A stretch of DNA of 64,000 nucleotides from Candidatus Daviesbacteria bacterium (GCA_016176335.1 JACOXI010000004.1:18303-82302); one strand, 5' to 3'. Counted from the first letter of the stretch, positions 25,000 to 35,412 are shown. A program made the numbers and translations. Notes: a model not told the origin generated them from the sequence alone.

Positions 25000-25386
25000 A
25001 TGGCCCAAAGCTTTAATGAATTGAGGATCTGGCAAATAAGCGAACAGTTAGTGGTAAAGATTTATAAAATGACAGATATATTTCCTAAAGACGAAGTTTA
25101 TAACATAGTTTCTCAACTCCGGCGTGCTGCCGTATCAATACCCACTAATATAGCTGAAGCTCATGGTCGATATCATGATGCAGAAACTATTCACTTCTTA
25201 TATAATGCACGAGGTTCAGCCGAAGAGGTGAGAAGTTTGTTGATGACTTCATTGGATCTTGGTTATATTACTAATGATATTTTTCAACAAACGAATGAGG
25301 AATATCTCAACTTGATTAGGAGTATTAATAGTTTTGTTAGAGCTATAAGAAAAACTAATCAACCAATTAACCAATTATCTGATTAA
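25000..25386 (+). CDS. Four-helix-bundle protein (TIGR02436-like, 23S rRNA intervening-sequence protein family)
   Basis: WQISEQLVVKIYKMTDIFPKDEVYNIVSQLRRAAVSIPTNIAEAHGR is the hallmark of this family. Confidence 0.8.
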   Translation: MAQSFNELRIWQISEQLVVKIYKMTDIFPKDEVYNIVSQLRRAAVSIPTNIAEAHGRYHDAETIHFLYNARGSAEEVRSLLMTSLDLGYITNDIFQQTNEEYLNLIRSINSFVRAIRKTNQPINQLSD

Positions 25387-25922: not shown

Positions 25923-26689
25923 CAAAGAGACAAAAAATAATCATTACCGCAATCCTATTAACTGCGGGACTACTGTCTACACAGCTGGTAGACTTTAATT
26001 TAAGATTTAGATTTATTGCAGGACTGGGAATTTTAGCCTGCATTCTCTCTCTTTGGGCCCTGCGAGAGGGTTTGAATACAACCAAGGCAGTGATTTTGAT
26101 GATATTGCCCACTCTTTATACGTTGGCTGTTGCATCTTTTTATTTTTTATTACCTGTTAGGTGGTTAACAAGGCTGCCTGTGGCATTTGCCTTTGGATTA
26201 ACATTTTACCTTTGCCTGCTTTCACAAAACGTATTCAATGTAGCTGCCATAAGAACAATTCCTTTGTACAGGGCAGCCTCAACAGCCGCATTTTTATTCA
26301 CTCTTCTTTCAGCTTTTTTTATATTTAATGTGGTACATGCTTTTAATCTGCTATTTTTGTGGAATGGATTGATGGTTGGTTTGATCAGCTTTCCTTTAAT
26401 TTTGCAGATTCTTTGGTCAATTTCAATGGAGGATAAAGTTCCCACCGAAACTTACATCCAAAGTTTTATTTTGAGTCTGATAATGGGGGAGTTGGCTTTG
26501 GCTTTTTCCTTTTGGCCCATCCCCACAACCATTTGGTCATTGGCGCTCTCATCAAGTATGTATGTGCTTTTGGGGCTAACCTCGCAATTTTTAAAAGGCA
26601 AGGTTAATAAAAGGGTAGTGTGGGAGTATATCGGGATTGGAGTTTTGGTACTTTTGGTCAGTTTATTTTTGACCTCTTGGACAGGATAA
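25919..26689 (+). CDS. Polytopic membrane hypothetical protein
   Basis: About 7 TM helices. ATGA start/stop overlap with ruvC. Confidence 0.5.
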   Translation: MTKRQKIIITAILLTAGLLSTQLVDFNLRFRFIAGLGILACILSLWALREGLNTTKAVILMILPTLYTLAVASFYFLLPVRWLTRLPVAFAFGLTFYLCLLSQNVFNVAAIRTIPLYRAASTAAFLFTLLSAFFIFNVVHAFNLLFLWNGLMVGLISFPLILQILWSISMEDKVPTETYIQSFILSLIMGELALAFSFWPIPTTIWSLALSSSMYVLLGLTSQFLKGKVNKRVVWEYIGIGVLVLLVSLFLTSWTG

Positions 26690-26697
26690 TTTAAAAA

Positions 26698-26725
26698 TTT
26701 CTAATTTCTAATTTCTAATTTCTAA
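26698..26725. repeat. Heptamer microsatellite (tttctaa)x4
   Basis: Direct tandem tttctaatttctaatttctaatttctaa, visible in the sequence. Confidence 0.8.
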
Positions 26726-27571
26726 ACTAAGAGGGGGAGTAGAGGGGTATATAGAATTATATAAACGTGAAAAATTTAGCGGAAATTCGTGAAAACTAGG
26801 GTTGATACAGTATGATGTAGTTAACAGGTATGAATGTGGAAAACTATAGGTCTCGTGGTGCTCGCTTCGCTTACTCCTTTGCGAGCCTGCGAGTGTTACG
26901 CTACTATTACGTTTGAGTGGTACAATAGCGCTTCTCTCCTTGATAACCTTTATATTTTATCAGCACTAGATTGATATAGTTGCTAATTAAACCCGAAGGA
27001 GTCGGAGAAGAGTGTGTCTTGGACGTACCTGTAACTAAAGCAATAGAAGTGCAAGAATACAGATTGGTGTTTTGTCTTTATGGTTTTAAATTCTTTATCC
27101 TCTTTTAAGCAAAACCTCCTGCTACCCAATTTTGATGTCGGACAATATAAGAAAACAACAAAATCGGAGAAGTGGTCAGATTCTCAAATTCCTTATTAAA
27201 TAAGAGATTTGGTGAGGAAGTTTAAGAATTTTTTCAGGTGCCCAAAAACGGTAATTCCCGTCCAAAATTTTATTATTTTAGAAATTTAAATTTTAAAATA
27301 TATCAATATTTAGTTTGGGCTTTCCTGACAACATAATCTGGATGATGGTAGGGTGGCACCCTCCCCCAATAAGCCGTTTTTGGGCCATTACAGGGCTTGG
27401 TGCCTAAACGTGCCCAGAGCGTAATGAAGAATAGCAGTCATTGTGTTAATGGGCTCACTCCATAATGTTTTGCGGGCCCCGATAGCGTCTAGAAGCTTAT
27501 TTGGTCACTTAGATATATTATATTGCTGGCCTCAAATTACTACTTGACAACACTTATGTAGGCTTGATATT

Positions 27572-28579
27572 ATGAGTATAATCAACCTAACACTCATTAT
27601 GTCAAGTTCCACCACTCCGCCAAAAAAGAAAATATCTCTTCCCTTGTTTGATGATTTTTTGCTGCATTTACAAACGAACAACTACTCTACCGAGACAATT
27701 TACAATTACGAAAGGGATCTTCTTACATTCACCTATTTTCTTGACAAAGAAATACAAAAAGACTTTGATGCAATCACCAAGTCCGACATTGAGCATTACA
27801 AAGGTTATCTTTTATCTACCGATCGTAAAACTGCAATTTCGAAGGAGGGTGCCTTAACTAAGTTACAAAGTGGATCCATGAATAGATTACTGTCATCTCT
27901 TAGGAGCTACTTGAAGTTTCTTATTTTTCAGGATTATAAGATTCCCATCCAGCCGGAGTTTATTAGAATGGTGAGAAAAGAAAAAAAACATTATAAAGTT
28001 GCAGAACTTGAAGAGTTAACTTCTTTAATTGAGTCACCATCTGTTTTAGAAAAAGATCCTATTGTGGCATCCCGAAATCGGGCTATGCTCGAAGTGCTTT
28101 TTGCAACAGGCATGAGAATTTCTGAACTTCTTTCCTTAAATAGAAGAGATATTGATCAAACCGGAAGGATTTTTATTATGGGTAAAGGTAAGAAGGAGCG
28201 TTTTGTTTATCTGACGGAGCGGGCCAAGTCTTTGATTGATGTTTATCTTAGATTAAGGAAGGATAATCTGCCTGCCCTATTTGTCCCTCAAAAAGGTAAA
28301 AGAATAGGTAAAAAAGATTGCCGTATTTCTCCTAACTATTTGCAATCCAAAATTAAAAGTTACCGTGAGAAATTAGGAATAATTGTGCCTACCAGCGCTC
28401 ACTCGCTGCGCCATGGTTTTGCTACTTATTTGGCAGAAGAAGGTGCCTCCCCTGCCGCGATACAGATTCTTCTTGGTCACGAATCTTTAAATACTACCAC
28501 TCGATATGTCAATGTTTCAGATAGATTTGCAGAAGAAGCTCATCGGAAATTTCATCCTCTTTCAGAAAAGCCTTCATAA
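27572..28579 (+). CDS. Tyrosine site-specific recombinase, XerC/XerD/integrase family
   Basis: N-terminal SAM-like domain (YSTETIYNYERDLLTFTYFL). C-terminal catalytic motifs HSLRHGFATYLAEEG and LLGHESLNTTTRYVNV (R..HxxR..Y). Confidence 0.85.
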   Translation: MSIINLTLIMSSSTTPPKKKISLPLFDDFLLHLQTNNYSTETIYNYERDLLTFTYFLDKEIQKDFDAITKSDIEHYKGYLLSTDRKTAISKEGALTKLQSGSMNRLLSSLRSYLKFLIFQDYKIPIQPEFIRMVRKEKKHYKVAELEELTSLIESPSVLEKDPIVASRNRAMLEVLFATGMRISELLSLNRRDIDQTGRIFIMGKGKKERFVYLTERAKSLIDVYLRLRKDNLPALFVPQKGKRIGKKDCRISPNYLQSKIKSYREKLGIIVPTSAHSLRHGFATYLAEEGASPAAIQILLGHESLNTTTRYVNVSDRFAEEAHRKFHPLSEKPS

Positions 28580-28666
28580 CTTGCTTCAAGTTACAAGAAG
28601 CAAGATGTAATCTTGCGATTATAATTAGCTTGACTTTGTAACTTAAATTGTTCTAGTGTAATTATA

Positions 28667-28939
28667 ATGGATTATTCCGCAGAAAAATTATTTTCCAAGA
28701 AAAATATCATTACCTTTCTTTTGTTGGCAATTATTGCTGCTGCTGTTCCTTTGGGTTTAAAGCTGGTGCAAACCCAACAGATATTAAGATCCCGGGCAGT
28801 TGCCCCGGGAAACGAGGTAACTTTTCCCGAACTTACCAGACAAGACGCGGAGGGAAATCCTCTAACCAATACCCAGCAAATTCAAATTAGGCTGGAATCA
28901 CCGTTTGGCCCGCCGGCAAGTACAACACAAACACAATGA
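28667..28939 (+). CDS. Small membrane-anchored protein resembling the N-terminal module of the downstream giant protein
   Basis: TM helix followed by LKLVQTQQILRSRAVAPG, paralogous to VRLVQQQTQLKSKAVDTCG at the start of 28936..32391. Stop overlaps that gene's start. Confidence 0.4.
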   Translation: MDYSAEKLFSKKNIITFLLLAIIAAAVPLGLKLVQTQQILRSRAVAPGNEVTFPELTRQDAEGNPLTNTQQIQIRLESPFGPPASTTQTQ

Positions 28940-31900
28940 ATTTCTTTGCTCTAAAAAATATAATCGGTTTTTTAATAGTTATAACTTTGATCTCCGGTGT
29001 TGCTATTGGTGTAAGGCTGGTACAGCAGCAAACTCAACTTAAATCCAAAGCAGTTGATACTTGCGGAGATAATCCTGTACCTCCACCTGAAGGTGGTTAT
29101 ACTTGGAAAGCGGATTGTAGTTCGGTATGTAATAGTAATACTGACTGTCCCATAGGAGCTAATAATCAAGAGGGGTGGTGTTATGGATTTGAAGGTGGAG
29201 CAAAGTGTCTTAAATTAGTATCAACTGGAAATGTAGGAACAGGTGCAGCACCTGTGGCAGGGCAAGCCTGCAGTGCTGCTGATGGTTGTGGTGAAAGAAA
29301 TGGCCTCTATTGTCGAGGTTTTGATGGAGGATCTTACACATGGATTTCTGAAACAGATGCTAAGAACTTTTGCTCTAGTCAGCAACGTCTGACTGCCGAG
29401 TGTGAGGGCGTCACCAAAGCTTGGTGTTGGGATACTACTGGTACAGGGGCAGCAGCATGGCATCCCACCCCTCCCGAGGAAGGCAGGCAATGTGACAAGC
29501 GGATCAGTTGCGGCCGTGCAATATGGTTACCCGACCAAGGCAAGAAACTATATTGCCGAAGTTTTAATAACCAGAACGACTTTAGATGGATTGATGAAAA
29601 CACAGCTTTGCAGCGCTGTGCCAGCAAACAGTACCAAACCACCCAATGTACCCCAGACGGCAGGAGCAGTCCGGAGACTACTGCCTGGTGTTGGAATGAT
29701 GGTTTGTGGCGTACCACTACCCCTCCTGCGGGTGGTCCAGATACCCCTGCCTGTACTGTGGATCTTAAAGCTAACGGATCTGATGGACCGGTGACTGTGG
29801 ATAATAATGCCACCGTAACTTTATCCTGGACCTCTCAAAATGCTGACAGAGTTAATGCCACCGGGGCCTGGTCGGGATCAAAAAGTACTTCTGGTTCAGA
29901 AACCACTGATCCATTGTCTGGTCCCAGTAGTTCGACCTTTTCCCTAACTTGTTTTAAGAATAACTCTACCCAAACTTCGGTTGATTCTGTTCAAGTTAAT
30001 GTGAGAGGTCCCGGGGGTGCTGCACCATCTGCCCAAGATTTCTCTATTTCTGCTTCCGCCCCGAACCCGGCAAGTATTACAGCAGGAGCTTCTGCCAGCT
30101 CCACCTCCACCGTCACTATTACCTCACTTAACAGCTTCAACAGCGCTGTGGTTTTATCAGCCGTCTCTCCCCGTACAGATATCACTGCTAGCGTTAATCC
30201 TACCTCCGTTACCCCTGCAGCTAATGGCACAGCAGCCACCAGTACTCTAACCATCACCACCGCTGCTGCTACCCCTGTCGGTAGTTACACCATCAACGTT
30301 ACCGGTACCAGCGGAGCTCTCACCCACCCCGTCGCAGTCCCCCTAACAGTAGTTTCTACTGCTTCTGCTCCTACTGCAGGCAGCAGATGTGACTATGACA
30401 TATTAGATATAAACGGCAGGAGCGTAAAGACTACTGGCCCTATTTATGAAAATGATAGATACACCTTCAGAATTACCATGACCAATACCGGCAGAGCAGG
30501 ACAGAGTGGAGATTGGACCAAATCTAACCAATGGTTGCAGGCACTTGAGAACACCGAATCTGCGTGGAGAATTGCCCAACGCTTTCAATTACCCAAAGAT
30601 CAGGTATCAAAAGATACAAGTGTTGTTTTTAATATAGATGCGACTGCTGGTCCGATTTCGACCCAAGATAAAAACTTTGAGGATAGGCCAACTTCCTTTT
30701 CCATGGCAGAAACCGGCACAGGCCCTTTTGGGGCAACTTGTCCTACGGAAGTAAGAGTCTTAAGAAAGCCGGCAGGTTTGGTATCTACCAAATGTTATGT
30801 CATATCGGAGAATCGAAGTGAAGTAGATAGTGTCTTAAGTTGTGATGATCCTTTGGCAAAACCATATACTAACAATCCCACAATTAGAAACTACACTTTT
30901 AGAGATCAGACTCCCGGAAAAAAGTTCATCTTTGTTAAGTTTTTCGATGTCAATAACCGCCCCAGCAATATGATTACAAAAACCGTTACTTACTCCCCCA
31001 ATCCGGCCATATCAAACGTTCTCTGTGCTTATGGTGGTTCCGGTCTGACCACCGTTTATAATATAACAGGTAATGGTTTCGGCTTGAGGAATGTCAATAA
31101 CAGGCTAAAAGTGGGTGATCAAAATGCCACAATACTGTCATGGGGGTCTGCAGAAATTACTGCCCAAGTTGATCAAAGAGTTGAAGGGGACACTGCTTTG
31201 CAGGTTGCTTTGGAAGATGGAAGAAAGGCTGACGGTTCTTGTGCTGTTGGGATAACCACAGCCACCTTGTCCGTTAAAAATCAATGCTTGAGTGGACAAT
31301 TTGATACGGATAATGTTGATGTGAAACTCTTTAGCAACGGGCCTGAACCGTTTGTCAGACAAACAATCAAAACAGATAAAGAAGGAAAAGCCCAAGGGTT
31401 TATTCCAAAACTTGAGAAAAACAAAAATTACACTATGATTGTTAAAGCTCCCGGTACTCTGGCAAAAGGAGTGGTATTTCGGACAACCTCGGGAACAAGT
31501 GTGATTGGGCCGATTGTTCTGCCTTGTGGAAATATTGCCCCTCTTCCTGTTCCTGATAACGTAATAAATTCATTTGATGTCAGTGCTCTTTTTTCCCAGT
31601 GGAGCTTGGTAAAAGATGTTTCAAAGCCGGCTGATTTGAATAGGGACGGCAGGGTCAACAGTGTTGATTATGCTTTTATGAAGCTTAATTTTAACCAGCA
31701 GGATGACGTATTTACCCTACCGGTTGTTGCGTCTCCTACTCCATCACCATCACCAAGTCCTTCACCTTCAGTTGTTCCTTCTTCCTTTTCCAGCGCCGAT
31801 GTATTTCGTGATTATATTCTGAATGCCTATGGTTTTACCGCAACTGCGGCGGATTTTATAAAGCGTAATTCTACTATTACAGTGAATGACTTAAGCGATT

Positions 31901-32391
31901 CCTGTAGCGGTGGTGGAGGTTTTTGGATTCCGGCCACTAGAAATGTTCAATTGAATTGTGCCCAACACGAAGGGACAGTACATGAACTTTCTCATGTTTG
32001 GTGGCATACATTCAGGTTACAAAATCCAGAGATGGTTAAAGGACTAGCACGGGATGTGGTAAGGCTTGCAGATGGTGATGGATCATCAATTGCTGTGGCA
32101 TTTGCCCGTACCTATGTATACGGAGATGGAGGAAGTTTTAAGGGAATGTATTGTAATAATGGTTGTGTTGCTGATGTCCATAATCTTCAAGATAGTGATT
32201 TCGATCTAACAGAGGCAGCCAGTAATGCTAAAATTAATGATTGGGAAATTTATGCTGGTTTGTCCTCTTGGACTGTGGGGAGGTTTAAAACTGGTTCAAG
32301 AGCGTTACCATCTTACTTTTGGAAGTATTTCGAACCACAATTTACAGGAACAATCCAGATAACACCATACTATGACGGAGGACATGCTTGA
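28936..32391 (+). CDS. Giant surface protein: N-terminal signal anchor, Cys-rich repeats, Ig-like (CARDB/PKD-like) domains, dockerin-like module, Pro/Ser linker, C-terminal HExxH zincin-like domain
   Basis: Three Cys-rich repeats (YCRGF...WI.E..A...C...Q..T..C........AWCW). Ig-like repeats (TVTLSWTSQNADRVNATGAWSG; TINVTGTSGALTHPVAVPLTVV). Dockerin-type Ca-loop repeats NSFDVSALFSQW and DLNRDGRVNSVDYAFMKLNF. SPTPSPSPSPSPS linker. TVHELSHVWWH metalloprotease motif. GC content is visibly higher than the surrounding sequence. Confidence 0.8.
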   Translation: MNFFALKNIIGFLIVITLISGVAIGVRLVQQQTQLKSKAVDTCGDNPVPPPEGGYTWKADCSSVCNSNTDCPIGANNQEGWCYGFEGGAKCLKLVSTGNVGTGAAPVAGQACSAADGCGERNGLYCRGFDGGSYTWISETDAKNFCSSQQRLTAECEGVTKAWCWDTTGTGAAAWHPTPPEEGRQCDKRISCGRAIWLPDQGKKLYCRSFNNQNDFRWIDENTALQRCASKQYQTTQCTPDGRSSPETTAWCWNDGLWRTTTPPAGGPDTPACTVDLKANGSDGPVTVDNNATVTLSWTSQNADRVNATGAWSGSKSTSGSETTDPLSGPSSSTFSLTCFKNNSTQTSVDSVQVNVRGPGGAAPSAQDFSISASAPNPASITAGASASSTSTVTITSLNSFNSAVVLSAVSPRTDITASVNPTSVTPAANGTAATSTLTITTAAATPVGSYTINVTGTSGALTHPVAVPLTVVSTASAPTAGSRCDYDILDINGRSVKTTGPIYENDRYTFRITMTNTGRAGQSGDWTKSNQWLQALENTESAWRIAQRFQLPKDQVSKDTSVVFNIDATAGPISTQDKNFEDRPTSFSMAETGTGPFGATCPTEVRVLRKPAGLVSTKCYVISENRSEVDSVLSCDDPLAKPYTNNPTIRNYTFRDQTPGKKFIFVKFFDVNNRPSNMITKTVTYSPNPAISNVLCAYGGSGLTTVYNITGNGFGLRNVNNRLKVGDQNATILSWGSAEITAQVDQRVEGDTALQVALEDGRKADGSCAVGITTATLSVKNQCLSGQFDTDNVDVKLFSNGPEPFVRQTIKTDKEGKAQGFIPKLEKNKNYTMIVKAPGTLAKGVVFRTTSGTSVIGPIVLPCGNIAPLPVPDNVINSFDVSALFSQWSLVKDVSKPADLNRDGRVNSVDYAFMKLNFNQQDDVFTLPVVASPTPSPSPSPSPSVVPSSFSSADVFRDYILNAYGFTATAADFIKRNSTITVNDLSDSCSGGGGFWIPATRNVQLNCAQHEGTVHELSHVWWHTFRLQNPEMVKGLARDVVRLADGDGSSIAVAFARTYVYGDGGSFKGMYCNNGCVADVHNLQDSDFDLTEAASNAKINDWEIYAGLSSWTVGRFKTGSRALPSYFWKYFEPQFTGTIQITPYYDGGHA

Positions 32392-32423
32392 CGGTAACAA
32401 CCGATAGGCGGTAAGCTAAAATT

Positions 32424-33008
32424 ATGGATAATCAAAATAAATGGCTAGGGTTAATCAATAAAAAAAACATCCTGATACTTTTGGGAGCGGTTATTGTGGT
32501 GGAAGTTTTGTGGGCCGGTTGGACTCTTTATCAAACAAACAGGCAGATCGTTCAAACGGTTCCCCCTGTTGCCACCAAACCTCAACCTACCCAAATTGAG
32601 CTTCGAACAGATAAAACAAGCGTTAAAGTGGGAGAAAAGTTTACAGTTTCTATAAATATGTTATCCGACAAATCAACTGACGGGGCTGATTTGATCATAA
32701 ATTATGACCCGAAACTTCTGTTGGCTGAACCGCTTACCTTGGGTACACTTTACAATGAATATCCCAAAAATACAATTGACGCTCGGGCTGGTAAGATTAC
32801 TGTTTCCGGTATTTCAACCGCAACGGACGGGATCAAGCCAAACGGGTTATTCGGTTCGATGGTATTTACGGCCAAAGGTCAAGGCCAGTCCTCTATATCT
32901 TTGGAATTTACACCGGGATCAACAGTTGACACCAATATTATAGAACAAGGAACAGGCAAAGATATACTGGAGAAAGTCAAGAATGTGGAGGTAACAATTA
33001 GTCCATGA
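32424..33008 (+). CDS. Cohesin-domain protein with N-terminal membrane anchor
   Basis: N-terminal TM helix. Cohesin-like beta-sandwich motifs: VGEKFTVSINM, LIINYDPKLL, AGKITVSGIS, GLFGSMVFTAKGQG. Confidence 0.65.
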   Translation: MDNQNKWLGLINKKNILILLGAVIVVEVLWAGWTLYQTNRQIVQTVPPVATKPQPTQIELRTDKTSVKVGEKFTVSINMLSDKSTDGADLIINYDPKLLLAEPLTLGTLYNEYPKNTIDARAGKITVSGISTATDGIKPNGLFGSMVFTAKGQGQSSISLEFTPGSTVDTNIIEQGTGKDILEKVKNVEVTISP

Positions 33009-33802
33009 GAATTCAAAATGTTTTTCAAACTGCCTTCGGCAGAACAAAATTCAAAATTCAAAATTACAATTCAAAATTTAAAATTTTTAAAACTTTTTAC
33101 TTTTTACTTGCATTTTTGACTTTTAATTTTTACCTTTTAACTTTTCCCACCCCTGCGCTTGCCCAAGCCGCCACCCTGTCCCTTTCTCCCTCCTCGGGCA
33201 CATTTAACAGGAGCTGTACCATTACTTTGGATATCAGATTGGATACAGCGGGAGCTCAAACAGACGGTACAGATGCGATCTTAACTTATGACTCATCAAG
33301 ACTTACTGCTACCTCAATTACAAGCGGAAATATCTATCCTGATTATCCCGGAAATAATATTGATGATACGAACGGGAAGATTACTGTTTCAGGTTTAGCC
33401 TCTGTTTCTTCTGCTTTTTCCGGGCAAGGAAGTGTTGCTACGGTCAAATTTACGATTAAAGATAACGCTCCAACAGGTGCAACTCAAGTCAAGTTTGATT
33501 TTGACCCGTCCGATAAAAGTAAAACTACAGATTCCAATGTAGTACAAAGAGGTACTGCTTCGGATATATTAAGTTCGGTGGTGAATGGAAATTATAATGT
33601 TGGAACAGGCACATGCGCCGCCGCACCCGCAACAGCCGTAAAAGGAGGACAAGGAGCTGTTTCCACACCATCAGGTAAAACTCTCGATCAGTTAGTAGAC
33701 AAAACAGGAAAAGGACCAGGCACACCCGAGCTCACCTTTACCCTGACAATTGTGGGATCGGTTTTGGTAGTGTTGGGAATTTTAGGATTGGCACTACTCT
33801 AA
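33005..33802 (+). CDS. Cohesin-domain protein with signal peptide and C-terminal membrane anchor (paralog of 32424..33008)
   Basis: ILTYDSSRLTATSITSGNIYPDY, NGKITVSGLAS and GSVATVKFTIKDNAPTGATQVKF match the cohesin consensus. C-terminal TM LTIVGSVLVVLGILGLALL. The N-terminal ~30 codons are built from the repeat family (ctgccttcggcagaacaaa + attcaaa units). Confidence 0.65.
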   Translation: MRIQNVFQTAFGRTKFKIQNYNSKFKIFKTFYFLLAFLTFNFYLLTFPTPALAQAATLSLSPSSGTFNRSCTITLDIRLDTAGAQTDGTDAILTYDSSRLTATSITSGNIYPDYPGNNIDDTNGKITVSGLASVSSAFSGQGSVATVKFTIKDNAPTGATQVKFDFDPSDKSKTTDSNVVQRGTASDILSSVVNGNYNVGTGTCAAAPATAVKGGQGAVSTPSGKTLDQLVDKTGKGPGTPELTFTLTIVGSVLVVLGILGLALL

Positions 33803-33930
33803 TCTCAAATCTTAGATCTCCCGTCAAAGACGAGGCTCGCTCGCCTCGTGGCGAAGCAATGGGCCTCTGGCGGCAAATCGCAAATCTGCAACTTATGACA
33901 TTTGAGTTTTGAGATAATAATGTCGTACAA
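33803..33930. repeat. Modular intergenic hairpin repeat, copy 3, with embedded GC-rich palindromic insert
   Basis: tctcaaatcttagatctc ... [cgaggctcgctcgcctcgtggcgaagc ...] ... acatttgagttttgagata. The termini match copy 1. Confidence 0.65.
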
Positions 33931-33935
33931 TATTA

Positions 33936-34826
33936 TTGATGCAACTGTCCAATCTAATTACTGACTTCCTGGAATATTTAGAACTTGAGCGAAACGCCTC
34001 CCAACTGACAATTAAAAACTATGACTATTACCTGAAAAGATTTTTGGAATTTGCCCGCTCGCCATCGCTACGCTCAGGCGTTAGCGGGCGAGCCGGAAAT
34101 ATTAGCCCCAGAGAAATCAATCTGGACTTGGTCGGGAAATACAGGCTATACCTGTCCCGAAAGCCGCTAAAACGCATCACCCAAAACTTTTTTCTGATTG
34201 CCCTGCGGGCATTTTTGAGATACTTGGCGCAAATTGATATCACCACCCTACCTCCCCAAAAAGTGGAGCTTTGGGAAACAGACGCGCGACCGATAAATTT
34301 TTTGGACCAAACTCACTTGAGATTTCTGCTTAAGGCTCCTGATATAACTAAAAAGGATGGTATGCGCGACCGTGCTATTTTGGAGATGCTTTTTTCAACC
34401 GGTCTGCTTGTATCGGAATTGGCATCCTTAAATTGCGACACAATTAATTTAGGAAGTTGGGAATTTCGGATCATTGGAAAAGGAGGGAAAGAGCGGGTGG
34501 TTTTCATTTCCGATTCCGCTCATGGATGGTTGAGAAAATACCTAATGGTCAGAAAAGATACTTTTAAGCCCTTATTTATCAGGTTTCAAGGAAAAGTTGA
34601 CCCTGCAAACGGCGGTGAATCAATGAGATTGACTACTCGCTCTATTGAGAGAATCGTAGAAAAATATGCTAGCCGGCTGGGTTTGCCTATCAAGGTTACT
34701 CCCCACACATTAAGGCACTCATTTGCAATGGATTTGCTGACCTCCGGCGAGGATATAAGATCTGTTCAAGAAATGTTAGGTCACTCCTCTATCTCCACCA
34801 CGCAAATTTATACACGTCACAAATAA
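33936..34826 (+). CDS. Tyrosine site-specific recombinase XerD/XerC-like, with a GC-rich in-frame insertion
   Basis: Catalytic motifs HTLRHSFAMDLLTSGEDIRSVQEMLGHSSISTTQIYTRH. Insertion RSPSLRSGVSGRAGN is encoded by gcccgctcgccatcgctacgctcaggcgttagcgggcgagcc. Confidence 0.85.
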   Translation: MMQLSNLITDFLEYLELERNASQLTIKNYDYYLKRFLEFARSPSLRSGVSGRAGNISPREINLDLVGKYRLYLSRKPLKRITQNFFLIALRAFLRYLAQIDITTLPPQKVELWETDARPINFLDQTHLRFLLKAPDITKKDGMRDRAILEMLFSTGLLVSELASLNCDTINLGSWEFRIIGKGGKERVVFISDSAHGWLRKYLMVRKDTFKPLFIRFQGKVDPANGGESMRLTTRSIERIVEKYASRLGLPIKVTPHTLRHSFAMDLLTSGEDIRSVQEMLGHSSISTTQIYTRHK

Positions 34827-34860
34827 ATCTTACTTTTCCTCATCTGCTACAATATATTTT

Positions 34861-35412
34861 ATGGATCAAAAAACAAAAAACATTCTGATTAAAACCGCCC
34901 TGTTTATAGTAAGCATCAGTTTTGGCTGGTATCTGGTAAAAAGCGGCATCTTACTTAACTTAATTGCAACAGTTATTCCTTATAAATTTATAGCAGAGTT
35001 TATCGCCGGTGTTCTTTATACTTCTTTTCTAACCTCGCCTATATCCTTGGCCATGCTTTTGGTTATTGCTCAAGAGTCAAACCCCATCATGATTGCTCTA
35101 ATTGGCGGATTGGGGGCCGCTTGTGGAGATCTTTTGATTATAAAATTATTCAGAGACAATAAAAGCGATGTTTTGAGTGTCACAAGACAGCTGCAACTTC
35201 ACAAAATAGACACAATCCTTAAGAAATTTCATCTGGAATTCCTCATTCCCCTAATTGGGGCAGCAATTATTGCTTCTCCTTTCCCTGATGAGATTGGACT
35301 GCTGATGCTTGGGGTGTCAAAATTAACATATGTAAGAATTGCCAAAATAAGTTTTGTCTTAAATTCAGCTGGAATCCTGCTTATTGTGACGCCTATTAAT
35401 TTACTCTCATGA
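34861..35412 (+). CDS. Small polytopic membrane protein, hypothetical
   Basis: 4-5 TM helices. Start of the P-type ATPase overlaps its stop (ATGA). Confidence 0.45.
   Translation: MDQKTKNILIKTALFIVSISFGWYLVKSGILLNLIATVIPYKFIAEFIAGVLYTSFLTSPISLAMLLVIAQESNPIMIALIGGLGAACGDLLIIKLFRDNKSDVLSVTRQLQLHKIDTILKKFHLEFLIPLIGAAIIASPFPDEIGLLMLGVSKLTYVRIAKISFVLNSAGILLIVTPINLLS

Follow-up and report, generated by a model that had tools for sequence, protein, structure and literature searches.

Is a cohesin-dockerin module that lies between two tyrosine recombinases in a genome of Candidatus Daviesbacteria a mobile cassette or a resident part of the chromosome, and what could it display at the cell surface? 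The DNA in question is one strand of 64,000 nt (GCA_016176335.1 JACOXI010000004.1:18303-82302), here called the window, of which positions 27,572-34,826 were studied. The window is a fragment of a chromosome from the Candidate Phyla Radiation (CPR, Patescibacteria), and the large protein encoded in the studied part is identical to NCBI HYS96_02830 of a Candidatus Daviesbacteria metagenome-assembled genome (MAG). CPR bacteria account for a large part of the diversity of bacteria and are believed to live in attachment to other cells, although to our knowledge almost nothing is known of their attachment machinery beyond a few cultivated Saccharibacteria. A preliminary description made from the sequence alone had read this segment as a non-cellulosomal cohesin-dockerin system in a mobile or recombinationally variable cassette. 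The results given here make it likely that the four tightly packed genes at 28667-33802 are a surface-display operon of the Daviesbacteria chromosome, in which a dockerin protein would dock on a membrane cohesin, probably the one called Coh1 below. The locus is vertically inherited and conserved in the chromosome and is not a mobile cassette.

Results and discussion

Gene organisation

Gene calling returned six open reading frames (ORFs), all on the + strand and at exactly the coordinates proposed for them before, and all the peptide motifs cited earlier were found in their translations.

27572-28579, +: Rec1, 335 aa, Xer-like tyrosine recombinase
28667-28939, +: small ORF (small90), 90 aa, membrane or secreted protein with a leader
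28936-32391, +: large dockerin protein, 1151 aa, multidomain surface protein (NCBI HYS96_02830, annotated as hypothetical)
32424-33008, +: Coh1, 194 aa, single-cohesin protein with N-terminal transmembrane (TM) segment
33005-33802, +: Coh2, 265 aa, paralogous cohesin with C-terminal TM segment
33936-34826, +: Rec2, 296 aa, Xer-like tyrosine recombinase

The small90 stop codon overlaps the start of the large gene. This junction and that of Coh1 with Coh2 are both 4-nt overlaps, by the second of which Coh2 is translationally coupled with Coh1, and 33 nt separate the large gene from Coh1. Promoter-like sites precede Rec1 and Rec2, the best one lying directly upstream of Rec1 (27544-27573). Because of the tight packing and of the promoter-like sites before Rec1 and before Rec2, the genes at 28667-33802 probably form a single operon.

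One dockerin and two cohesins

A cohesin is a nine-stranded beta-sandwich of ~140 aa (Pfam PF00963). A dockerin (Pfam PF00404) consists of two tandem segments of ~22 residues, and in each of them an EF-hand-like Ca2+ loop (DxNxDGxxNxxD) precedes a helix. In all, the 64-kb window has a single dockerin, two cohesins and two tyrosine recombinases. The modules concerned are the following.

31519-31698, +: dockerin module of the large protein, aa 862-921, loop 1 degenerate, loop 2 canonical (DLNRDGRVNSVD)
32601-32936, +: cohesin domain of Coh1, aa 60-171
33218-33532, +: cohesin domain of Coh2, aa 72-176
33725-33799, +: C-terminal TM segment of Coh2, aa 241-265

Both cohesins, so far assigned by their consensus motifs, are recognised by PF00963 (gathering threshold 24.1 bits), Coh1 with 37.2 bits (E=4e-9) and Coh2 with 45.4 bits (E=1e-11), and a sequence search of the PDB with Coh1 returned cohesins, the best at E=1e-6. 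The motifs AILTYDSSRL and VATVKFTIK are found in Coh2, and GKITVSG in both proteins. Hydropathy places the membrane anchors where they had been described, at aa 7-36 in the N-terminal part of Coh1 and at the very C-terminus of Coh2 (aa 241-265). In addition, Coh2 has an N-terminal signal-like segment (aa 27-45) and a flexible stalk.

The dockerin, of which the repeats NSFDVSALFSQW (aa 878) and DLNRDGRVNSVDYAFMKLNF (aa 900) had been cited, is equally found by Pfam (PF00404 Dockerin_1, 24.1 bits, or 26.8 bits when submitted as a sub-sequence; gathering threshold 22.9; E=4e-5 to 6e-6), and aa 829-924 of the large protein match the dockerins 5k39_B, 2mte and 1daq in a sequence search of the PDB. 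An alignment of 28 orthologues yields the consensus LPxGDIxP...GDGxINxxD...L.RQW...GDFNxDGRVNSIDWACM, in which the duplicated Ca-loop signatures are conserved. Both loops are fully canonical in loci L009, L010 and L015 (e.g. GDYNGDGSINSVD). Most orthologues have an insertion of 4-6 residues in loop 1, and in the window protein and its nearest relative this loop has degenerated further, with loop 2 canonical. Since 20 of 27 orthologues also pass the Pfam model (best E=1.6e-8), the identification of the dockerin is robust.

The features of a cellulosome are missing: there is one cohesin per anchor and one dockerin protein, and neither the window protein nor any of 27 orthologues holds a carbohydrate-active enzyme (CAZyme) or carbohydrate-binding module (CBM) domain in Pfam, in agreement with the non-cellulosomal nature proposed before. 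Two of the 27 orthologues carry a cohesin besides their dockerin, and an enzyme domain of any kind was seen in none of them.

Conserved position of the locus

A genome scan anchored on DUF5656, the housekeeping gene upstream, gave 39 loci, each from a different Daviesbacteria species; a close relative contributed two further contigs. Across these ~40 loci the order is YebC, RuvC, DUF5656, ~0.7-0.9 kb of non-coding DNA, Rec1 (where present), 0-5 variable ORFs, the dockerin protein, Coh1, Coh2, Rec2, a 183-aa membrane protein and a P-type ATPase. It recurs at DUF5656 identities to the window from 91% down to 46%, and in independent metagenome contigs as well. The genes are always co-oriented, and no inversion was found in any of the ~40 loci.

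The proposal of a mobile cassette does not hold against this background. The block of TIG-dockerin gene, Coh1, Coh2 and Rec2 occupies the same chromosomal position throughout, and Rec2 turns out to be a syntenic core gene, the very finding which, according to the preliminary description, would take away the argument for mobility. Repeats had been suggested for 27450-27575 and 33803-33935 as possible recombination sites; a search over 26600-35000 gave only short AT-rich chance matches, direct or inverted, and none that bracket the segment.

As to the surroundings, a 128-aa ORF is located at 25000-25386, between YebC and RuvC; its product presumably resembles the four-helix-bundle proteins common in 23S rRNA intervening sequences. 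This ORF is missing from the equivalent site of L001, where a PhdYeFM/ParE toxin-antitoxin pair is found upstream instead.

Co-variation of the dockerin with Coh1

The gene order dockerin gene-Coh1-Coh2 is kept in at least 23 species. Pairwise identities of the dockerin and of Coh1 over 23 species are correlated (Mantel r=0.67, p=2e-4), and they remain so when a housekeeping neighbour (partial r=0.65) or Coh2 (0.59) is taken into account, whereas the correlation of the dockerin with Coh2 vanishes once Coh1 is given (-0.04). Physical linkage alone is unlikely to be the cause of this co-variation, because Coh2 is just as tightly linked. Furthermore, two species (L012 and L020) lack the dockerin gene together with Coh1 and keep Coh2-Rec2. 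Because the divergence of the dockerin tracks Coh1 and not Coh2, and because of this joint loss, Coh1 is the likely cognate partner of the dockerin. Coh2 is more conserved and has the stalk and the C-terminal anchor; its partner or role is probably a different one.

From the domain identities, the operon layout, the conservation across species, the co-variation and the co-loss observed here we infer topology, binding, catalysis and a biological target as follows. All four products would be exported by means of their N-terminal hydrophobic leaders. Coh1 would be held in the membrane by its N-terminal helix with the cohesin outside, and Coh2 by its C-terminal helix, with a flexible stalk. The dockerin near the C-terminus of the 1151-aa protein would plug into a membrane cohesin, most likely Coh1, in a Ca2+-dependent manner as in cellulosomes. 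Thus displayed, the immunoglobulin (Ig)/TIG stalk and the orphan Cys-rich modules could act as an adhesin-like binding protein, and the Pro-Ser linker and HExxH domain that are present here and in a few relatives would probably add a surface Zn-metallopeptidase activity. The system may be linked to an episymbiotic life style, as was suggested before.

The large protein and its HExxH domain

Besides the dockerin, the large protein is composed of the following parts.

28936-29055, +: signal-anchor leader, aa 1-40, ...RLVQQQTQLKSKA; TM segment at aa 1-31 by hydropathy
29056-29745, +: Cys-rich cargo region, aa 41-270, 18 Cys, orphan sequence
29746-30375, +: Ig-like repeat region, aa 271-480
31039-31218, +: IPT/TIG domain, aa 702-761, Pfam PF01833 with 25-28 bits (cutoff 20.9), E=2e-5 to 2e-6
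31714-31767, +: Pro-Ser linker, aa 933-945, between the dockerin and the C-terminal domain
31768-32388, +: HExxH domain, aa 945-1151, zincin-like family without earlier description

The motif TVHELSHVWWH at aa 1014 had been noted as a zincin motif, with the reservation that it might be a coincidence in a structural domain. Such a coincidence is unlikely, for the region belongs to a family of domains that is conserved, has HExxH as an invariant motif and is predicted to fold like a zincin. All 14 close members keep H1016, E1017 and H1020, and HExxH is found in 75 of 77 full-length domains of the family. Further invariants of the close family are Y1060, a Tyr 40 residues downstream, and D1102-W-E1104 within DWEIYAG. 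The 13 close homologues are 208-353 aa long, and many carry both a TM helix and a P/T linker. A profile search of 1.84 billion proteins raised the family to 178 cluster representatives; those with a name come from Candidatus Blackburnbacteria, likewise a Microgenomates lineage, and are annotated as hypothetical proteins. The order dockerin, linker, HExxH is seen in four cluster representatives (P0001, P0135, P0136 and P0138), the last of which is at the same locus in a different lineage and has a canonical dockerin; the fusion is therefore recurrent and presumably selected. In the AlphaFold model (pLDDT 94, pTM 0.91) a three-stranded sheet is followed by the HExxH motif on helix 67-85, and the DWE motif lies on helix 158-169.

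Judged by conservation and model together, the domain probably represents a new zincin-like family, nearest to M34, and is probably catalytic, with moderate support. From the M34/ATLF-like zincins (anthrax lethal factor, PPEP-1, PPEP-2 and PPEP-3) it differs in that sequence similarity is not detectable and Foldseek not significant, in ~40 extra residues between the candidate Tyr and Glu, and in its fusion behind a dockerin or to a TM anchor and P/T linker. A catalytic role has to be weighed against the lack of any Pfam match even at E<=10 and of any NCBIfam match, the lack of a sequence match of the family profile in the PDB, and a Foldseek search of the PDB with the model that gave nothing significant; moreover, E1104 as candidate third zinc ligand and Y1060 as candidate catalytic Tyr are guesses from conservation. 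One could thus regard the domain as a non-catalytic, zincin-derived binding module like the PA-binding N-domains of the anthrax lethal and edema factors, and the protein as purely adhesin or structural. This is unlikely, because the non-catalytic ATLF domains (LF-N, EF-N) have lost HExxH, whereas here the motif is invariant in the close family and kept in nearly all full-length members, and because the invariant polar residues Y1060, D1102 and E1104 are placed as expected of a gluzincin.

At the other end of the protein, the leader motif is common to the large protein, small90 and many variable-region ORFs of relatives. It is lineage-specific, has L-V-Q-x-Q-x-x-L-[KR]-S-[KR]-A behind a hydrophobic helix, and marks proteins of this locus across species; within the window it occurs in two proteins only (28936-29055 and 28667-28790). 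One possible role is that of a dedicated signal for export or for processing. The small90 protein, with a TM segment at aa 8-36 by hydropathy, has homologues at the equivalent position in many relatives (e.g. 90% in L001, 53% in L013). It had been considered a duplicate of the N-terminal module of the large protein; what the two share is a 39-aa signal-anchor leader (44% identity), and the similarity extends to no larger module.

Of the three Cys-rich repeats mentioned earlier, three modules are indeed present, but they are unequal: one is of WCYGF type (aa 41-95), and two are copies of LYCR.F...AWCW (LYCRGF at aa 124, LYCRSF at aa 205, AWCW at aa 162 and 250). The region has no match in Pfam, and for the Cys-rich N-terminal region no homologue was found at E<=0.01 among 5.8 billion proteins; a 70%-identical relative, P0002, has only the first module in common. 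The Ig-like region is homologous to a widespread ~105-aa repeat of hundreds of large surface proteins, its Pfam match (I-set) being marginal only. An NCBIfam match to 'invert_tail' in the Ig region was disregarded as sub-threshold (18 bits, cutoff 37). The TIG domain passes Pfam in 11 of 27 orthologues of the dockerin protein.

The higher GC content of the large gene, which had been taken as a further hint of mobility, was reproduced (0.449 versus 0.387 for the window). However, the excess is confined to codon positions 1 and 2 (0.48 and 0.52), and the value at third positions (GC3, 0.347) is no higher than in the neighbours. It results from an amino-acid composition rich in Thr, Ser, Ala and Gly; a foreign origin was ruled out as its explanation, since GC3 equals that of the neighbours.

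Variable cargo

Compared across species, the locus is a conserved platform with fast-changing cargo. The interval from DUF5656 to the TIG-dockerin part is 2-8 kb long and holds 0-5 differing ORFs, which are often Cys-rich (16-44 Cys) and provided with a leader. The closest relative has 91% identity in the flanking protein but only 70% in the large protein, counted over the shared parts; its large protein is without Cys modules 2 and 3 and without the HExxH domain, with other sequence in their place. What follows the dockerin varies too. Among 28 orthologues, a short P/S/T-rich tail is found in 20, a ~35-aa mini-domain with four Cys in four, other tails in three, and the HExxH domain in one, that of the window. 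Such a fast replacement of cargo is what one would expect of a surface protein on which diversifying selection acts.

The four-Cys mini-domain, C.QVIT.A.NP..GEC.(E/D)FPTPCD(V/I)P.GW..V..C, ends the dockerin proteins of L001, L008, L033 and L039 (e.g. L001:12430-12535). Following dockerin and P/S linker, it takes the position of the HExxH domain of the window protein, and no annotation was found for it.

The two recombinases

That both recombinases are of the tyrosine type was substantiated by Pfam (Phage_integrase at E<1e-31, with SAM-like N-domains). Rec1 scores 112 bits with Phage_integrase and has a SAM_1 domain, Rec2 scores 124 bits, and the best NCBIfam matches are XerC and XerD (190 and 181 bits for Rec1, 207 and 196 for Rec2). 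In this domain composition they are like XerC/XerD, and so is Rec2 in being single-copy, syntenic and housekeeping-like. They are unlike them in that 180-207 bits stay far below the equivalog cutoffs of 330-335 (335 for XerC, 330 for XerD), in that Rec1 is dispensable and allelically variable, and in that Rec2 of the window is without Arg-I. No dif-like site was recognised. The integron integrase model TIGR02249 gave 79 and 94 bits for the two, far under its cutoff of 265.

The catalytic motifs of Rec1 are all intact (TGMRISEL, GKGKKER, HSLRHGFA and LGHESLNTTTRY). About 22 of 39 relatives have the gene, and it is missing from at least 14 loci that cover the site. Its sequences fall into three allele clusters, and their pairwise identities show no relation to those of DUF5656 as a species proxy (r=0.00): in the closest relative Rec1 is only 59% identical, versus 80-93% in more distant species. 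Rec1 is an independently variable insertion, and there is a hint that it is part of a small module which moves on its own. Certain Rec1 alleles are accompanied by accessory ORFs, among them a 166-aa ORF overlapping the start of the allele (L001:8185-8685, L006:11643-12143). ORFs of ~180-240 aa lie downstream of Rec1 in L009, L010, L014, L018, L029 and L036, and there is none in the window.

Rec2 adjoins Coh2 in every relative whose contig extends that far, at a pairwise identity of 0.78 +/- 0.05. In the window its codon 158 (34407-34409) is CTT and puts a Leu at the position of the first catalytic Arg, TGLLVSEL as against TGLRVSEL in 15 of 18 orthologues, and in L024, L028 and L033 the gene is truncated or split. 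These sequences suggest that constraint on Rec2 is relaxed, and the window copy may be catalytically impaired.

The non-coding gap upstream of Rec1

Between the DUF5656 gene and Rec1 an 880-bp gap (26690-27571) is free of ORFs. It contains conserved blocks at 26765-26850, 27129-27177 and 27253-27406. The 155-nt 3' block is detectable in 40 of 40 Daviesbacteria loci, including those with 46-48% identity of the neighbouring protein, and the 86-nt 5' block in 36. A near-invariant motif reads AGCCGTTTTTGGGGCC..TT..AGGGCCTCGTGCC; in the 5' block, CGTGAAAA and TGATATAG each occur two times as direct repeats, and TGTGGAAAA resembles a DnaA box. It is always just 3' of these blocks that Rec1 and the cargo genes start.

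Several identities were considered for the gap and rejected. For a structured RNA, Rfam gave nothing at gathering threshold or at E<=1, the z-scores of the minimum free energy were ambiguous (-3.1 for the + and -6.3 for the - strand), RNAalifold found 5 weak pairs in 37 sequences, local tests were weak on both strands, and the helix GCCCAAAAACGG/CCGTTTTTGGGC is not conserved. A small ORF is precluded by stop codons in all six frames. An oriC would go with the DnaA-box-like and iteron-like repeats, but the gap has only one near-consensus box, and the window as a whole is not enriched (22 found, 20.4 expected). Finally, all true metagenomic copies are in the same syntenic context, contrary to a dispersed or mobile element. 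The gap is possibly a regulatory region, a recombination target or an unrecognised RNA.

A possible exchange of cargo by recombinases

The preliminary description had also called the segment recombinationally variable. This may be so, given that the interval is hypervariable and Rec1 sporadic with incongruent alleles; a link of this variability to the recombinases did not emerge. One might nevertheless imagine a recombination hotspot, in which Rec1 and/or Rec2 swap cargo before a fixed docking platform in the manner of an integron or shufflon, with the upstream non-coding block as a possible site. The differing sets of leader-bearing ORFs in the 2-8 kb interval, the swapped internal and C-terminal modules in the relative with the 91%-identical flanking protein, the varying modules behind the dockerin, the uneven presence of Rec1 with its three alleles, uncorrelated with the species proxy, and its accessory ORFs, and the deeply conserved block immediately before the start of Rec1 or cargo would all agree with it. 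We consider such a hotspot quite unlikely all the same. Repeats bracket neither the segment nor any gene inside it, all loci are co-oriented without inversions, and cargo also varies in many species that lack Rec1 altogether. In its evolution Rec2 resembles a housekeeping neighbour; it is degenerate in three lineages and has Leu at Arg-I in the window, and both enzymes remain far from the integron integrases by score. Homologous recombination together with diversifying selection accounts equally well for the pattern.

The wider version of this idea is a lineage-wide 'plug-and-display' system, in which a fixed Coh1/Coh2 platform receives interchangeable, quickly diversifying dockerin-tagged cargo, the exchange being catalysed by the recombinases at the conserved non-coding block, and which sets what the cells attach to. 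The cargo would comprise orphan Cys-rich binders and, in some lineages, surface zinc peptidases of a new family. We hold this version to be improbable.

Weighing the pairing of dockerin and cohesins

Dockerin and cohesins of this locus might also not be a pair at all, the cohesins binding dockerins encoded elsewhere or some other ligand, and the dockerin being a Ca-binding structural element. One may point here to the retention of Coh2 without a local dockerin gene in L012 and L020, to the degenerate loop 1 of the window dockerin, and to the fact that the dockerin census covers only 64 kb of the genome. But an adjacency that is conserved throughout the lineage, the joint loss of dockerin gene and Coh1, and a co-variation of the dockerin specifically with Coh1 speak against it, and we think this explanation improbable as well.

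For the docking of the large protein on a membrane cohesin, which we prefer, some observations are nevertheless unfavourable. The first Ca loop is degenerate in the window protein (GNIAPLPVPDNVINSFD), and the Pfam score of this dockerin barely exceeds the threshold. The mirror-tree signal is derived from a dockerin alignment of ~60 aa, and co-transfer of adjacent genes could explain part of it. The structure model of Coh2 is of modest confidence (pLDDT 62, from a two-sequence alignment). If the N-terminal helix of the large protein is not cleaved, it would already serve as an anchor, and the dockerin would then be needed for something else, e.g. complex formation. Lastly, no recognisable enzymatic or binding domain was found in the cargo, so that the term adhesin is suggested by the architecture.

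A horizontally acquired, integrase-flanked island of 7 kb carrying the surface-protein module is scarcely credible, for, although two co-oriented tyrosine recombinases flank the segment, the GC content of the large gene is above that of the window and the phylogeny of Rec1 is incongruent, the position is the same in ~40 loci down to a 46%-identical DUF5656, att-like repeats are lacking, GC3 (0.347) equals that of the neighbours, and Rec2 is syntenic everywhere.

Comparison with known systems

The single-cohesin anchors OlpA and OlpC of Clostridium thermocellum, which bind type I dockerins (PDB 3ul4, 4dh2), are attached by S-layer homology (SLH) domains, whereas TM helices take this role here. 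Neither scaffoldin, CBM nor glycoside hydrolase accompanies the locus described here, its cohesin genes lie directly downstream of a single dockerin gene in one operon, and the host, a CPR bacterium, has a small genome. Non-cellulosomal examples include the cohesin 2xdh of Archaeoglobus fulgidus and the toxin-complex modules of Clostridium perfringens (2vo8, 2w1n, 2o4e). The present system differs from these in being an operon that is syntenic throughout the lineage, in having two paralogous cohesins, both anchored in the membrane, and in the hypervariability of its dockerin protein. That peptidases can bear dockerins and that cohesin-dockerin modules exist outside cellulosomes is known (PMC6487960).

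The closest parallel among Patescibacteria is SEML1_0315 of the cultivated, epibiotic Saccharibacterium Southlakia epibionticum. It is reported to be an essential dockerin-domain envelope protein, for which the authors of that study proposed a role in host adhesion or degradation (PMC10633639). Both are dockerin-domain surface proteins of a Patescibacterium; however, the two hosts belong to different CPR classes, the passage on SEML1_0315 names no cohesin partner for it, and the likeness considered here is one of domain content. The searchable literature held no description of such a locus in CPR bacteria or Daviesbacteria.

Conclusion

The system is a variation on the known non-cellulosomal cohesin-dockerin theme, to which an HExxH family without earlier description is added. 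The correction of the first reading matters in that flanking recombinases and a GC excess are no sign of a mobile element here. With 178 cluster representatives, mostly from Microgenomates-type CPR bacteria, the HExxH family is a candidate for a new family of surface metallopeptidases, as sequence conservation and the predicted structure suggest. If plug-and-display by recombinases were true after all, it would mean that an episymbiotic CPR bacterium exchanges its surface proteins as cassettes. The ectodomains, which are small, lend themselves to recombinant binding and protease assays that need no cultivation. For the attachment of CPR bacteria to other cells, this locus is a concrete candidate: a docking module, conserved throughout one CPR class and built from a pair of membrane cohesins and a single dockerin protein, with fast-evolving cargo and with an interface between Coh1 and the dockerin that appears to co-evolve.

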